Positions 51,248-58,778 of a DNA stretch of 64,000 bases are shown here, in pieces (the stretch's first letter is position 1; each line of letters starts with the position of its first letter). The notes beneath the pieces are model-generated. The model had not been told where the DNA came from, did no database searches, and saw only the letters and a list, made by a program, of their open reading frames with translations. Source of the stretch: a virus; UHGV virus genome UHGV-0018629; one strand, written 5' to 3'. Position numbers and translations under genes: made by a program.

Positions 51248-53512
51248 TCATAATTTACAAGATGAACAATCTTCAGCTTTTGGAGTTTCTATTTCATAAT
51301 CATCAGTACCAGAACCATCACGAGTATTATGATAGTAGAAGTTTTTAATGCCATAATACCATCCGTATAGCATGTCATCAATCATTACAGACATTGGAAC
51401 CTTTCCTTTTGGAAAAATCTGCGGGTCATAATATGTATTCGCTGAAGCTGATTGACATACCCATTTAAGCATAATAGCTACCTGCGTAAGATAAGGTTTA
51501 TTACCTTTCTTAGCTAATTTCCACGTATAATCATATAGGTCTATGTTATGTTCAATATTGGGCACGACTTGATTAAAGGAACCCTCTTTTGATTCTTTAA
51601 CAGAGACTGGTCCACGTGGAGGCTCGATACCGTTTGTACTGTTAGAAACTTGGGAAGATGACTCACATGGCATAAGTGCTGATAATGTGCTATTACGGAT
51701 GCCAAAGAGCTTAAGGTCTTCCCGCAGCGACGACCAGTCACAAACGTATTTTGGAGCTGCGATTTGGTCAATCTTTTTATTGTACCAGTCGATAGGTAAT
51801 TCGCCTCGAGACCAACGAGTGTCTGAATAATATTCGCAAGGTCCTTTTTCTTTGGCGAGCTTAATGGATGCTTTAATGAGTCCATACTGTAATCTCTCAA
51901 ATAGTTCATGTGTTAAATCGTTAGCATCTTCATAAGAAGCGAAGTTACTTGCCAGCCAAGCTGCATAGTTAGTAACACCTACGCCAAGGTTTCGACGCTT
52001 TTTAGCTTTTTCTGCTTCAGGAACAGGATATCCTTGGTAATCCAATAGATTATCAAGAGCGCGAACTTGAACTTCTGCCAATTCATTAATTTTATCTTGG
52101 TCTTGCCAATCGAAGTTATCTAACACAAATGCAGATAATGTACACAATCCAATTTCAGCATCAGGACTATTCACGTCATTTGTTGGAATAGCGATTTCAC
52201 AACACAAGTTACTCTGACGAATAGGTGCCTTTTCACGAATAAATGGCGTATAGTTATTCGTATTATCAATGAACTGCACATAAATCCTTGCTGTTCCTGA
52301 GCGTTCAGTCATGAGCAATTCAAATAGTTCACGGGCTTTAATACGCTTTTTACGAATATTAGGGTCTTTTTCTGCTGCTTCGTATAATTCACGGAAACGG
52401 TCTTGGTCTTTAAAATAAGAATAATAAAGCTCTCCACCCATTTCATGTGGACTGAACAAAGTAATGTAATCGTTCTTTCCGAATCGTTCCATCATTAGGT
52501 CATTAAGTTGAACGCCATAATCCATATGACGGATACGGTTTTCTTCTACACCTTTGTTATTTTTCAAAACGAGAAGATTTTCAACTTCCAAATGCCAAAT
52601 AGGATAATAAGCAGTAGCAGCGCCGCCACGAATTCCACCCTGTGAGCATGATTTAACAGCAGTCTGAAAATGTTTCCAAAAAGGAATGACACCAGTATGA
52701 CGCACTTCACCCATACCAATCTTAGAACCTTCGGCACGAATCATACCAACGTTAATACCAATTCCAGCGCGTTTGGAGATATATTCAACAATTGAAGCAG
52801 AAGCCTTATTGATAGACTTCAATGAATCACCTGCCTCAATAACAACGCATGAACTAAATTGTCGAGTCGGAGTACGGCAACCAGCCATAATAGGAGTTGG
52901 TAATGAAATCTGTCGAGTAGATACTGCTTCATAAAAACGGATAACATGTTTTAATCTATCAACAGGTTCATCTTGATGCAATGCCATTCCAATAGTCATA
53001 AATGCAAACTGTGGAGTTTCATAAATTTGACCAGTGGTTTTATCTTTAACTAGATATTTTTCCTTTAGCTGCATCGCCCCGGAATAAGTAAATTCCATAT
53101 CCCGCTCATGCTTAATTTTTGATTCTAAAAATGTAATTTCTTCTGCAGAATATTTTGATAACAGTTCAGGGTCATATTTCCCTGCATTTACACAATAAGA
53201 AATATGGTCAATAAATGAACGTGGTTCATACTGTCCATAAACATGCTTACGAAGAGCAAACATTAAACAACGCGCAGCTACATATTGATAATCAGGCTCT
53301 TCAACCGAAATAGAATTCGCAGCAGCCTTAATGACAATAGTCTGAATATCATCAGTTGTCATTCCATCACGGAGATAAGATTTAATATTTTCATATAATT
53401 CATAAGGATCGACTGATGTTCCTTCAGCTGCCCAAGATAAAACTTTAATAATTTTTTGCGGGTCAAAGCTCTGAGAAACACCACTACTTTTGATAACATT
53501 AATTAATTGCAT
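51248..53512 (-). CDS. nrdA: Aerobic ribonucleotide reductase large subunit
   Basis: 754 aa; C-terminal Cys pair (CSSC). Confidence 0.97.
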   Translation of the reverse strand: MQLINVIKSSGVSQSFDPQKIIKVLSWAAEGTSVDPYELYENIKSYLRDGMTTDDIQTIVIKAAANSISVEEPDYQYVAARCLMFALRKHVYGQYEPRSFIDHISYCVNAGKYDPELLSKYSAEEITFLESKIKHERDMEFTYSGAMQLKEKYLVKDKTTGQIYETPQFAFMTIGMALHQDEPVDRLKHVIRFYEAVSTRQISLPTPIMAGCRTPTRQFSSCVVIEAGDSLKSINKASASIVEYISKRAGIGINVGMIRAEGSKIGMGEVRHTGVIPFWKHFQTAVKSCSQGGIRGGAATAYYPIWHLEVENLLVLKNNKGVEENRIRHMDYGVQLNDLMMERFGKNDYITLFSPHEMGGELYYSYFKDQDRFRELYEAAEKDPNIRKKRIKARELFELLMTERSGTARIYVQFIDNTNNYTPFIREKAPIRQSNLCCEIAIPTNDVNSPDAEIGLCTLSAFVLDNFDWQDQDKINELAEVQVRALDNLLDYQGYPVPEAEKAKKRRNLGVGVTNYAAWLASNFASYEDANDLTHELFERLQYGLIKASIKLAKEKGPCEYYSDTRWSRGELPIDWYNKKIDQIAAPKYVCDWSSLREDLKLFGIRNSTLSALMPCESSSQVSNSTNGIEPPRGPVSVKESKEGSFNQVVPNIEHNIDLYDYTWKLAKKGNKPYLTQVAIMLKWVCQSASANTYYDPQIFPKGKVPMSVMIDDMLYGWYYGIKNFYYHNTRDGSGTDDYEIETPKAEDCSSCKL

Positions 53513-53829
53513 AAGTCCTCAACTTGAAAATCGTCTTTAAACAATCGGTTAACTATATGAGCTATTATATCACCATGACACGGCTTTGGTTTACATGTGC
53601 ATCCTAGCCTCATTCCACGTAAAGGCTCTAAATGTGCTTTAGTTATTTCTCCGGATTTAATTCGACGTATAAAATCTTTTTTGAATAATTCAATGGCAGC
53701 CTCCCGGCTGCCAGCATCTTTACCGACGTAATTTCCCCAAAATGTACCACGGTGAATATTAACATCAAAGTCGGATTTATATATATTCACTACCCGGCAT
53801 AGACGGCCCGGTTGGTAATAATTCTTCAT
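53503..53829 (-). CDS. Hypothetical protein with Cys/His motif (nrdA.1-like)
   Basis: 108 aa; [13 protein letters not shown] motif. Confidence 0.6.
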
Positions 53830-54058
53830 ATTGTTGTTCCGTTAAAACAGTAATATCATAATAACAATCAGAAGAAGTTTTAACTGTGGAAATTTTATTA
53901 TCAAAATACTCACGAGTCATTTTATAAGTATAGTATTTTTTACCATAAATGATAATAGGCTGATTTGGTCCTGGAACTTCTAACTCACTTGGATTAGGAA
54001 GTGTAAAAAGAACGACACCAGAAGTATCTTTAAATCGTAAAATCATATATCCTCGCAA
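53777..54058 (-). CDS. Hypothetical protein (nrdA.2-like)
   Basis: 93 aa ORF. Confidence 0.5.
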
Positions 54059-54066
54059 TAATAAAA

Positions 54067-54927
54067 TTACACCGCCATTTTTCCTTTAATTGGCGGATGA
54101 GATACATAGTTGTTAAGAACAAAATTATGCGGCTTTGCGAATTGACTCAACCAAAATACCTGCGATTCTGTGTCCCATTCATCAAATTCATCTGGAAATT
54201 TTAATTGCAATTCACATAAATCCATAGGTTCACGGCGTAAAATTTCTTTACATTGTTCTACGTGATTCATATAGATATGAGTATTACCACCAGAAAATAT
54301 CAAATCTCCAGGAATAAGATTACACATCTTAGCTACAATATGAACTAATGCAGCATATGATGCAATATTAAATGGAAGACCGAGAAAAACATCTACCGAG
54401 CGTTGATACCACTGCAAATCTAAATATCCATTACGAACATTAAATTGATAGAACATATGACAAGGTGGTAATGCCATATATTTAAGTTCAGCTGGATTCC
54501 ATGCAGAAACAATTTGACGTCTATCATTTGGCAGTTTTTTAATACGATCAACAACTTCTATAATTTGGTCTACACCGCCAAAATCGCGCCATTGTTTTCC
54601 ATAAATTGGACCAAGTTCACCACTATGGTATCCTAAATCTTTTGCTTGATTTTCGTAATTTTCATCCCAGACTGTTTTGCCTTGAATTAATGAATCATGT
54701 TGAATTAATCGCAAATCATTGACATTTGTACTTCCCGATAAAAACCATATTAGCTCAGCAATGCAAGCTTTCCAGGCAAGCTTCTTAGTTGTTACTGCAG
54801 GAAAACCTTTAGTTAAATCCCAACGCAATTTAGTACCAAACAGAGCAATTGTTCCTGTGCCTGTTCGGTCATCGGTTTCATAGCCATTTTCAAGGATATT
54901 TTTAATTAAATCTTGGTATTGTTTCAT
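54067..54927 (-). CDS. td: Thymidylate synthase, uninterrupted
   Basis: 286 aa continuous ORF; active-site region ALPPCH. Confidence 0.96.
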
Positions 54928-54940
54928 TTAGCACCTATAA

Positions 54941-55300
54941 TTAATATGGCTTTGCATCAAATTTTCTTCCAATTTCAGGTGTGAAATATAATTCTTTGCC
55001 GCGTTTGGAAAAGCGACCATTAATATGATAATTATTCTCATCAAACGTAATATTGCCAATATCCATAGCTTTCAACCAAGTATCGATATTTCTATCCAGC
55101 TTTATGTCAAAATTCCAATACGGAGAACTATTACCGAAAATAATACAAGCGGATTCAGTGAAACAACTACTATAAATCTTGTCTTTAGGAACTACTAATT
55201 GATAGACACCTTTAATAAATTGAGGACCCTGCCATTTTGGTTGTTTCGCGTCTTTTTCTAATAGAATAGGGTAATAATTAAAATTCATATTTTCCACCAC
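54941..55300 (-). CDS. Hypothetical protein inserted between frd and td
   Basis: 119 aa ORF; no motif recognised. Confidence 0.6.
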   Translation of the reverse strand: MVENMNFNYYPILLEKDAKQPKWQGPQFIKGVYQLVVPKDKIYSSCFTESACIIFGNSSPYWNFDIKLDRNIDTWLKAMDIGNITFDENNYHINGRFSKRGKELYFTPEIGRKFDAKPY

Positions 55301-55308
55301 GTATTATT

Positions 55309-56131
<823 letters not shown>

Positions 56132-56135
<4 letters not shown>

Positions 56136-56491
56136 ATTATCTCCCATTGAAAAGGGTCATGAGCATATCCGCTAGCGTCAATCATTTTAACTAAAGTTAC
56201 CATTCCTCTGTTAACTGCTTGCGCGATTTCATCAAAAACTTCGTCACTATCATCGTAAAGGTCATTAAAAAGTTCTAATACGTTCTTCTGAACTTTTAAT
56301 TTACGGCCGGCAATTTCGCCTACAGTAAATTCGTTTCCGCCAAATCCAGCGTAAAATGTAATTACACCCATTAACTGGCTTTCACGGGAATCTATATCGT
56401 GTGATAAATTAATAAAAGCCGTCCCAGGCGCGGTTTTAAGTTGGCAACGAATTTTTACTTGGGTAATTCCAGTTATATGAATGTTAGACAT
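56132..56491 (-). CDS. Hypothetical protein (frd.x)
   Basis: 119 aa ORF. Confidence 0.55.
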
Positions 56492-56501
56492 AATATTTTC
56501 C

Positions 56502-56801
56502 TCAGACAGACTTTTTCACAATTTTCCAATCAGCTTTAAACTGCTCGACGTCAGAATGGTAAATCCAAAATCCTGCACTTTCTCCATCCTCATAAAGAGG
56601 ACATCCATCACATTCATCTTCCCATCCCATATCACGTAAAAGATGTTCAGCTTTTTCAACAAGTTCAGAATCTTTACCGATGATATTAAAATACCATTTA
56701 CCTCTAACTTCTGAATCTTTGATGCTCTGACGTTGTAATCTCATTTTATTCTCCTTAGTTGATAAGGCTATAGTATCACTACCATAGCCTGTTGTAAACA
56801 A
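56502..56801 (-). CDS. Hypothetical protein (frd.x)
   Basis: 99 aa ORF, possible internal start at MRLQRQS. Confidence 0.5.
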   Translation of the reverse strand: MFTTGYGSDTIALSTKENKMRLQRQSIKDSEVRGKWYFNIIGKDSELVEKAEHLLRDMGWEDECDGCPLYEDGESAGFWIYHSDVEQFKADWKIVKKSV

Positions 56802-57104
56802 TTATTTTTGAATTTTATCGAGCCACTTACCAAGCTTAATCATTTCTTTAGTAGCCTTTTCCATACTTCTGAACTTAACCAATAGAGGATAGGTATCGAC
56901 ACCCATAACTAAACTGGTTACAAGACTGTGTTCACCCACAAGCCATAACGAATACGTTTGAATATCGAGCCCGTAATTTCTGTCTTTATGGACCCGTACA
57001 CCCATCACTTCAAATTTCTCACTAGCTTTTTCTACCGCATCCAGGAAATCATCTTTAGTCATATTAGGCCTTAAATGTTTTTCGCAAAAGTTCAATGATT
57101 TCAT
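56802..57104 (-). CDS. Hypothetical protein (frd.x)
   Basis: 100 aa ORF, possible internal start at MTKDDFLD. Confidence 0.5.
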   Translation of the reverse strand: MKSLNFCEKHLRPNMTKDDFLDAVEKASEKFEVMGVRVHKDRNYGLDIQTYSLWLVGEHSLVTSLVMGVDTYPLLVKFRSMEKATKEMIKLGKWLDKIQK

Positions 57105-57450
57105 CTACATTGTTTTCGTCAACAATGCAGTGAATTTTTGTCACGCCAGAAACTGTACCTTCATTAGCGGATTGAGGCTTTTCTAAAGTTACCTCAGTAA
57201 AGTATTTGAATTCTTCAGAGTAAATCTCAAAATACGTCTCAAGTGGGCCACCCGCCATGCATTCAGTGCCATCTTCCATAGTTACACGTACCACACATTC
57301 ACCAGCACAATCATCACTTTCCATTTCATCTACAACAAAACTAGGTCCGTGCTTCTCTATTAAATTTAGCATCATTACATTGCAACGGCACTCGTTAGCA
57401 AAGTCATTTTTAAATAAAGGGTTAATGATATAAGTTTTTCCAACTTCCAT
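57064..57450 (-). CDS. Hypothetical acidic protein (frd.x)
   Basis: 128 aa ORF. Confidence 0.55.
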   Translation of the reverse strand: MEVGKTYIINPLFKNDFANECRCNVMMLNLIEKHGPSFVVDEMESDDCAGECVVRVTMEDGTECMAGGPLETYFEIYSEEFKYFTEVTLEKPQSANEGTVSGVTKIHCIVDENNVDEIIELLRKTFKA

Positions 57451-57470
57451 TTTGATTTCCTCATTTTAAC

Positions 57471-57487
57471 GGGGCTGTAATAGCCCC
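57471..57487 (-). terminator. Stem-loop GGGGCT-GTAAT-AGCCCC
   Basis: Hairpin read in sequence. Confidence 0.45.
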
Positions 57488-57495
57488 CTTGATAA

Positions 57496-57726
57496 TTATT
57501 GTTCAATCAGTCCCATGTAAAATTCTGCGTCTTCAGAATCCATGCCATCGCAATATTCATTAGCCATAAAACGGGTGAGGTCTTCAAGAGGACCTTCAAT
57601 GACAATAGAAAAATTGCAATAATTAGGGTCATCGTGAATACTTGTGATACTAAGTTCAGGATAACGATTACGAATAATTTCTTCAATATATTCAAAATCA
57701 ACGATGTCAATATCAACTTTAGCCAT
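57496..57726 (-). CDS. Hypothetical small acidic protein (frd.3-like)
   Basis: ORF 57496..57849; likely start MAKVDIDIV (57726) with AAGAGGAAA Shine-Dalgarno, 76 aa. Confidence 0.5.
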
Positions 57727-57828
57727 ATTATTTTCCTCTTTAATCATCAGCAGTATTGCCGATAGTTGTATAGTACCACAGTTTTTATAGTATGTAAACC
57801 GTTTTGTGAAAAATTTTTGAAATAAAAA

Positions 57829-57847
57829 GGGGACCTCTAAGGTCCCC
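57829..57847 (-). terminator. Stem-loop GGGGACC-TCTAA-GGTCCCC downstream of gene 32
   Basis: Perfect 7-bp GC-rich stem. Confidence 0.55.
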
Positions 57848-57869
57848 AATTAATTAGTAATATAATCTA

Positions 57870-58778
57870 TTAAAGGTCATTCAAAAGGTCATCCAGGTCC
57901 GTGTCATCAGCACTAGATGAACTGCCAGAGCTTGAGCTCATAAAATCATCTTCAGTTTTTGTATTGAAGTCATCAACATTGAATGCATCCAAATCATCAG
58001 CAACTTTATCAGCTTTCTTAGCGGCAGTTGCTGCGGCACCACCCATCACAGCAGTTCCCATAACTTGACTGAACTTAGTGCTCAGTTCTTCAAACGATTT
58101 AAATTTATCTTTAGAAGTCATTTCAGAAAGGTCAACCATTTGTTCGAACAGTTCTTTCTGGAAAGATTCATCATCAATGTTTGGAATCGCAGATTGATTC
58201 AGGAATTTAGATTCGTCGTAGTTACTAAAACCAGAAACTTGTTTAACTTTCAGTACAAAGTTAGCACCTTCCCACGGACAAGTTACATCAACCGGAGTTT
58301 CACCCATTTCGACATCAACTGCAATCATTGCATTGATTTTATCCCAGATTTTCTTACCGAAACGATATTTAAATACTTTACCTTCATTTTCTGGAGCAGC
58401 TGGGTCTTTTACTACAAGAATGTTAGCCCAGTAAGAAGTTTTACGTTTAACAAGACCGTACTCTTTATTGTCAGTGTTGTACAAATCATTTTTACTGATG
58501 TACTGACATACTGGGCAAGAATCGTAATCACCGTGGGTAGATGAACAGTTTTCAATATACCATTTACCATTTTTCTTGAAACCGTGATTTACAAGAATTG
58601 CGAATGGTGCTTGTTCATCATTTTTAGACGGAAGAAAACGAATTACTGCTTGACCGTTACCCGCATTGTCGAGTTTCAGTTTCCACTCACCTTTATCTTC
58701 AGAAGAAAAACCACCTTTATTTCCAGCCAGTTTAGCCATTTGTGCAGCGAGTTCAGCAGTAGATTTACGTTTAAACAT
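57870..58778 (-). CDS. 32: Single-stranded DNA-binding protein gp32
   Basis: 302 aa; acidic Ser/Asp-rich C-terminal tail. Confidence 0.96.

Follow-up and report, generated by a model that had tools for sequence, protein, structure and literature searches.

A PHROG 1928 family gene between frd and td in a T4-like phage genome, shared with T2 and T6 and missing from T4

The DNA analysed here, referred to below as the window, is a stretch of 64,000 nucleotides (nt) of the virus genome UHGV-0018629, and the element in question is a short open reading frame (ORF) lying between frd and td, the genes of dihydrofolate reductase (DHFR) and thymidylate synthase (TS). The window is from a Tequatrovirus and is ~95% identical to many sequenced isolates. 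In the ORF listing of the window the reading frame occupies 54941..55300 on the minus strand and encodes 119 amino acids (aa) from a GTG start, opening MVENMNFNYYPILLEKDAKQPKWQGPQF; the translation of this maximal ORF begins MVENMNFNYYPILLEK. A preliminary description of the locus had placed a 119-aa ORF between frd and td on the same strand and with tight spacing, and this was confirmed. The ORF stop is separated from the td ATG by 13 nt, and the gap after the frd stop is 8 nt if the GTG is taken as start, or 20 nt if translation begins at an ATG at 55288. The ATG is likely to be the true start, giving a protein of 115 aa, because the Shine-Dalgarno-like motif GGTGGA stands ahead of it (Table 1) and because the counterparts in T6 and AugustSocin are annotated with the same length of 348 nt (115 aa). 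In two related metagenomic lineages (L009 and L010), the equivalent of this motif, GGTGAA, lies within the 3' end of frd.

It was found that the ORF protein matched PHROG 1928, a family of unknown function, with an E value of 2.4e-34, residues 8-115 aligning to profile positions 2-125/126. All 45 relatives collected, short and long forms together, matched the same PHROG and no other. By tblastn the ORF was recovered in 551 phage records, of which 363 reached at least 80% aa identity, including T2, T6, RB14, RB7 and RB68. In these named phages it is labelled 'RB32ORF229c' or 'hypothetical protein', and the aa identity to the T2/T6/RB14/RB32 counterpart was 95-97%, with a few substitutions distinguishing the present protein from the T2/T6-type one. 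The ORF is not new: its family has been annotated before, as one of unknown function, and the window carries a T2/T6-type allele. T2, T6, RB14, RB32 and about 360 other Tequatrovirus genomes have it at the same locus, on the same strand, between the same neighbours and with the same sequence relic on its left side, which is described below.

The family was found to be narrow in its distribution. An exhaustive hidden Markov model search of 1.84 billion cluster representatives gave only 41 representatives at E <= 0.001, compared with 3 and then 12 clusters from a word-indexed protein search. All but three of the 41 were 95-139 aa long, the exceptions being an 899-aa repeat protein and two fragments. 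The repeat protein (P0030) covered profile positions 18-49 only and was judged spurious. As far as these searches reach, the family is confined to T4-like phages of Enterobacterales. One predicted protein of 195 aa (P0012; L026 4001-4588, OR941409.1) has an unrelated N-terminus fused to the last ~40 residues of a Jiaodavirus-type protein; td and nrdA are split on the contig that carries it, which appears to be rearranged or misassembled.

Scans of the ORF protein against Pfam, NCBIfam and PADLOC gave no match, and the one line in the Pfam output, HlyIII (E 0.04; 14 bits, the cut-off being 26), was regarded as noise. The Pfam scan of the 45 relatives returned scattered single-member matches only, at E 0.011 or worse, and a PDB sequence profile search returned none at E 10. 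The preliminary description had noted that the ORF lacks GIY-YIG, HNH or any other recognisable motif, and this could be extended from the ORF to its 45 relatives. In full-text literature searches, no paper discussing the RB32ORF229c/PHROG 1928 ORF was found. Public labels of the gene, at L001 2474-2821 among other loci, conflict with one another: it is called 'putative homing endonuclease' in the BASEL phages AugustSocin, AdolfPortmann and TadeuszReichstein, the records of BW-1 and pSe_SNUABM_01 have 'putative glucose-1-phosphate adenylyltransferase', those of the JLBYU phages have 'putative dihydrofolate reductase', and in Erwinia phage IT22 (L007 2486-2797) the family gene is without annotation. 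None of these three functional labels is supported by any domain evidence.

Substitution patterns indicated that the ORF is translated and selected as a protein. Between the window and T6, the nonsynonymous (dN) and synonymous (dS) divergences of the ORF were 0.014 and 0.216, respectively, giving a dN/dS of 0.066; between T6 and AugustSocin they were 0 and 0.177, giving a dN/dS of 0. For frd, dN/dS was 0.21-0.30 in comparisons of the window with T6, AugustSocin and T4, and for td it was 0.047 between the window and AugustSocin. With a dN/dS of ~0.07 against 0.21-0.30 for frd, the ORF is thus more constrained than the adjoining DHFR gene. Judged by these rates, it is a genuine protein-coding gene under strong purifying selection.

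In every family-bearing locus examined, frd is followed by one or two family genes and then by td, all on the same strand and usually with overlapping stop and start codons. This was observed in 23 of the 23 family-bearing loci in a scan that covered L001-L024 and also in S16, PEi20 and Pm5461, so that the comparison took in Tequatrovirus, Kanagawavirus (Q7622, PEi20), Jiaodavirus (KPV15), Moonvirus (Merlin), Roskildevirus (IT22/Cronus), Marfavirus, Gelderlandvirus (S16, STML-198), Bragavirus (Pm5461) and the L009 and L010 lineages. A related-locus search gave 14 loci, all in the frd-family-td order, and members in Karamvirus and Winklervirus were detected by tblastn. Homologues in many genera were 25-65% identical. 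By gene order, T4-like phages of at least ten genera have the PHROG 1928 family in the frd-td slot. The preliminary description had suggested accessory or anti-defence cargo at this junction. That suggestion found no support, as the same family sits in the same slot in at least ten genera, and its synteny, coupling and selection are unlike those of fast-turnover anti-defence cargo, although the tools used bear neither way on an anti-defence activity as such. The shared slot, together with the occurrence of the ORF in hundreds of related phages, T2 and T6 among them, argues that the ORF is neither an unusual insertion nor alien cargo.

Two size classes can be told apart in the family: short forms measure ~95-116 aa, and long forms, of ~115-139 aa, carry behind the conserved Trp (W19) an additional segment that reads roughly W-[AP]-L...P-T-I-x-E-Y...N-P. 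Short and long genes stand as pairs between frd and td in S16 (gp155/gp154), Merlin (260/259), PEi20 (ORF-253/252) and Q7622 (gp196/gp197). These pairs share with the ORF the PHROG 1928 match, the position, the overlapping stop and start codons and the residues W19, G91, K95 and G97. They differ in that the proteins of these genera are 25-46% identical to the ORF protein and are encoded by two tandem genes, whereas only the short form is found in Tequatrovirus. A search for a paralogue elsewhere within the window found none. The short form comes first in most of the two-paralogue genera examined (Kanagawavirus, Moonvirus, Marfavirus, Gelderlandvirus and the L009/L010 lineages); in Roskildevirus IT22/Cronus (L007 2059-2493; L016 2559-2975) the order is reversed, and a long form of 144 aa precedes the short one.

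The spacer between the ORF and td also varied. It is 13 nt in the window (54928-54940; compared with L002 3448-3491 and L001 2429-2473). T6, AugustSocin and four Tequatrovirus contigs from IMG/VR have ~45 nt instead, which corresponds to an indel of 31-32 nt. At its end the longer spacer has ~16 nt (TTTATATAAGGTAC) that agree at 14 of 16 nt with the 3' terminus of long-form genes in Kanagawavirus and Moonvirus (TTTATATTAGGTGC). This stretch may be left over from a second paralogue since lost, or it may just be the ribosome-binding site of td. As the segment includes the td Shine-Dalgarno sequence, the relic interpretation was kept as a weak one.

As the preliminary description had stated, the ORF is missing from reference T4, where frd and td adjoin and overlap by 4 nt in an ATGA junction. 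The same fused junction without the ORF was found in RB69 (Mosigvirus), C6 (Dhakavirus) and ECO07P1 (Tequatrovirus). The frd 3' end and the td 5' end at the T4 junction are nearly identical to those of the window, but in the window 385 bp including the ORF part the two genes, and the overlap with its direct coupling is lost. A 44-nt probe of the T4 junction matched end to end in 61 records and on the td side only in about 350. Given 363 records with the ORF at the above identity threshold against 61 with the T4-type junction, presence of the ORF is, by count of sequenced records, the majority state of Tequatrovirus and T4 is the exception. The ORF is polymorphic within Tequatrovirus and missing in RB69 and C6, while all the other genera sampled have it at this slot. 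By its natural absence, the gene is dispensable in T4, RB69 and C6. The td gene is intronless in the window and in T2; the window has an uninterrupted 286-aa ORF, and no Rfam group I intron was detected in its 64 kb, whereas in T4 and T6 it is split by the intron with I-TevI.

Inspection of the ORF borders revealed a 15-bp direct repeat (Table 1). The 15-mer TAAATGAAACAATAC contains the functional td start, and its left copy, with one mismatch, joins the frd stop to a vestigial td start. Only these 2 matches were found in 64 kb, compared with 0.04 expected. When the 385 bp between the repeat copies were removed in silico, the T4 junction string was recreated exactly. The left relic begins TAAATGAAAYAA, and all six other ORF-bearing Tequatrovirus loci checked had the same relic, slightly more decayed. 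By its sequence, the left repeat copy is a fossil of a fused frd-stop/td-start junction like that of T4, RB69 and C6. The idea of an insertion at this junction, put forward in the preliminary description, was thus partly upheld: the repeat and the 385-bp unit with its junction fossil agree with it, and the ORF being the majority state of Tequatrovirus (363 versus 61 records) does not.

An anomaly was found in the relative divergence of the three genes. The pairwise identity of the ORF protein was below that of Frd in all lineage pairs except the window and L009, for which it was 61%, compared with 49% for Frd. L009 shares 90% (Td) and 61% (Frd) identity with Kanagawavirus and only 79% and 49% with the window, and both proteins thus place it nearer to Kanagawavirus. 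For the ORF protein this is reversed, with 50.5% to Kanagawavirus and 60.9% to the window. The fossil td start joined to the frd stop, together with this anomaly, favours a history of loss and re-acquisition. An ancestor of the Escherichia coli T-even genera would have lost the family gene or genes, fusing frd to td, and a Tequatrovirus lineage would then have regained a short-form gene from an L009-like related phage. This would have taken a single homologous crossover within td and a single illegitimate join at 12 nt into the gene, and the repeat left behind could in turn delete the ORF again. We regard this history of ancestral loss and later short-form re-acquisition as somewhat more probable than not.

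An AlphaFold2 (AF2) model of the ORF protein, built on a 12-sequence alignment, had a mean pLDDT (predicted local distance difference test) of 78.9 and a pTM (predicted template modelling score) of 0.74. The model showed strands at residues 8-12, 27-34, 38-40, 48-50 and 62-64, a helix at 68-76, and further strands at 80-82, 86-96 and 99-104. Across the 45 sequences, in both paralogue classes, W19, G91, K95 and G97 were invariant. Q16, G27, Y29, F93 and F102 were nearly invariant, as was R92, which lies in a conserved hairpin G-R-F-x-K-x-G. No invariant Asp, Glu, His or Cys was found in this alignment. The median isoelectric point (pI) is 8.6, so that the family is mildly basic. These features point to a protein that binds and does not catalyse, and they speak against a nuclease of any kind. 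All fold matches of the model in BFVD were uncharacterised proteins of T4-like phages.

From these features the protein would be a small, mildly basic, non-enzymatic beta-barrel with one helix. In many genera its gene runs in the same direction as frd and td and is coupled to them tightly or through translation, and the protein would be co-translated with DHFR and TS. Its role might be to bind to the phage thymidylate-cycle/deoxynucleoside triphosphate (dNTP)-synthesis module or to act as an adaptor in it, for example holding Frd and Td together or attaching them to nucleic acid or gp32, and it might raise fitness in nature while being dispensable in laboratory hosts. We put forward this partnership, non-catalytic and with the phage machinery of the thymidylate cycle or dNTP synthesis, only tentatively, and would call it possible rather than likely. 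The explanation as a whole, which takes gene identity, history and mechanism together, is the best one available to us, and it is held with somewhat less than even confidence. In a more specific form, PHROG 1928 would be an unrecognised non-catalytic third component of the DHFR-TS module, with the long paralogue, where it occurs, as the fourth, acting as a DHFR/TS tether or regulator or as a link to the replisome, and lost by T4 and RB69 on fusion of frd and td. The junction region of protozoan bifunctional DHFR-TS is a proposed functional parallel to such a tether or regulator. This specific form is speculative, and we consider it improbable as it stands.

Several points weigh against the overall explanation. 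Deletion between short direct repeats is a well-known process in T4, and an alternative history, in which the td start was duplicated and the ORF was then recurrently deleted between the repeats, would yield the same sequences, leaving the polarity of the indel unproven. The divergence anomaly consists of pairwise identities and not of a reconciled phylogeny. A formal gene-tree conflict was looked for in unrooted quartets of frd, ORF and td and none appeared, so that the tree evidence for re-acquisition is suggestive only. On the functional side, the link of the ORF to DHFR and TS is one of guilt by gene position alone, and since T4, RB69 and Dhakavirus do without the ORF, it is not required for thymidylate synthesis itself.

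Other functions were considered for the protein. It could be an anti-defence or host-takeover effector, that is, a small early protein neutralising a host immunity or metabolic protein, for which the frd-td slot is merely a convenient place of expression. Many T-even early ORFs of ~115 aa are host-directed, and the present protein resembles such effectors in being small, lineage-restricted, non-enzymatic and dispensable (missing in T4, RB69 and C6), in its polymorphic presence within Tequatrovirus and in its signs of lateral re-acquisition. However, it keeps one and the same position, translationally coupled to frd and td, through at least ten genera, its purifying selection is strong and exceeds that on frd, unlike that on patchy, fast-evolving counter-defence genes, and it had no Pfam match, the anti-defence families in Pfam included. 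The PADLOC library, which likewise gave no match, consists of defence proteins and says little on anti-defence. An effector role was therefore considered unlikely.

A nucleic-acid-binding role was judged slightly less likely again. In this case the protein would be a regulator with a fold like that of OB (oligonucleotide/oligosaccharide-binding) domains, acting on single-stranded DNA or messenger RNA, for example in translation or processing of the frd-td transcript. OB-fold domains (RPA, Teb1, S1, HIN) made up most of the weak, below-significance structural matches to the model. The architecture predicted for the ORF protein, strands, one helix and then a long beta hairpin, may be akin to theirs, with no sequence similarity. 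The mildly basic pI, the invariant Trp, and the invariant K95 and nearly invariant R92 of the hairpin would also suit nucleic acid binding. On the other hand, the net charge is just about +2 and some long-form members are acidic. In addition, Rfam gave no family at gathering score anywhere in the 64-kb window, and no RNA element was found at the ORF region.

The third possibility, a degenerate or novel free-standing homing endonuclease spreading by cutting fused frd/td junctions, is suggested by the BASEL annotation and by the presence or absence of the ORF as a precise indel at a site flanked by conserved genes, in surroundings where homing endonucleases abound (I-TevI, mobE). The seg and mob genes are likewise small ORFs present or absent between conserved genes of close phages, and the nrd-td region of T4 houses both I-TevI and mobE. 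In contrast to the seg/mob genes, however, no nuclease domain, whether GIY-YIG, HNH, LAGLIDADG, His-Cys box, PD-(D/E)XK, EDxHD or other, was found in any of the 45 members, and no invariant acidic, His or Cys residue that could be catalytic. No nuclease was found among the fold matches, 115 aa is below the size of known Seg and Mob enzymes, and a fixed syntenic position in many genera with a dN/dS of 0.07 is not the pattern of decaying selfish genes. A homing endonuclease, degenerate or otherwise, is thus largely refuted and must be regarded as very improbable. That the ORF is no gene at all, merely a chance reading frame or spacer in AT-rich DNA, as its lack of a Pfam domain and of a published function might suggest, is hardly credible and is refuted by a dN/dS of 0.07 at a dS of about 0.2 and by protein conservation down to 25-30% identity between genera with invariant residues, to which the confident AF2 model, the Shine-Dalgarno sequence and the coupling to adjoining genes may be added.

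In the wider gene order, gene 32, frd.3, frd.2 and frd.1 lie upstream of frd, and nrdA.2, nrdA.1 and nrdA lie downstream of td. A promoter and terminator scan of the ORF region gave no excess over shuffled sequence, and the hairpin just downstream of gene 32 (Table 1) was the sole terminator-like site across 53400-58000. Downstream of td, nrdA.1 carries a DUF4326 domain (E 1.2e-21). Three further ORFs upstream of frd are missing from T4, indicating that the interval between frd and gene 32 is plastic at several points and not at the frd/td junction alone.

Table 1. Positions of the ORF, its borders and neighbouring features in the window
Feature	Position	Strand	Remarks
ORF coding sequence, PHROG 1928 family	54941..55288	minus	115 aa, ATG start; equals RB32ORF229c, T2/T6 hypothetical protein
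Maximal ORF	from GTG at 55300	minus	119 aa
Shine-Dalgarno-like GGTGGA	55293..55298	minus	4 nt upstream of ATG 55288; read from sequence
Left copy of 15-bp direct repeat, TAAATGAAATAATAC	55301..55315	minus	frd stop TGA (55311-55309) overlapping vestigial td start
Vestigial td start ATG AAA TAA	55312-55304	minus	inside left repeat copy
Right copy of 15-bp direct repeat, TAAATGAAACAATAC	54916..54930	minus	functional td start, ATG 54927-54925
385-bp indel unit	54931..55315	minus	one repeat copy, ORF and short flanks; separates window from T4-type genomes
frd (dihydrofolate reductase)	55309..55890	minus	upstream neighbour; 91% aa identity to T4 Frd; from annotations of homologous loci
td (thymidylate synthase)	54067..54927	minus	downstream neighbour; intronless, uninterrupted
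nrdA.1	53503-53829	minus	overlaps nrdA start and nrdA.2 end
85-aa ORF	55890-56147	minus	upstream of frd; no Pfam match; RB32ORF231c in T6; missing from T4
119-aa DUF7247 protein	56132-56491	minus	upstream of frd; RB51ORF237 in T6; missing from T4
100-aa ORF	56802-57104	minus	between frd.1 and frd.2; no Pfam match; missing from T4
Terminator-like hairpin	57829-57847	minus	strong; 8-bp stem with 6 GC pairs, then T run

As a sequence feature the ORF is ordinary, being annotated in T2, T6 and hundreds of genomes and merely missing from T4. What it preserves is worth noting: the textbook overlap of frd and td in T4 is retained as a 15-bp fossil in T2/T6-type genomes, and would neatly illustrate how a gene can be lost and regained by recombination at a microhomology. 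Tied to the frd-td pair across at least ten genera and more constrained than DHFR, the family is a well-defined target for the study of phage nucleotide metabolism, and T2 or T6 knockouts together with T4 knock-ins would provide natural isogenic tests of what the ORF does.
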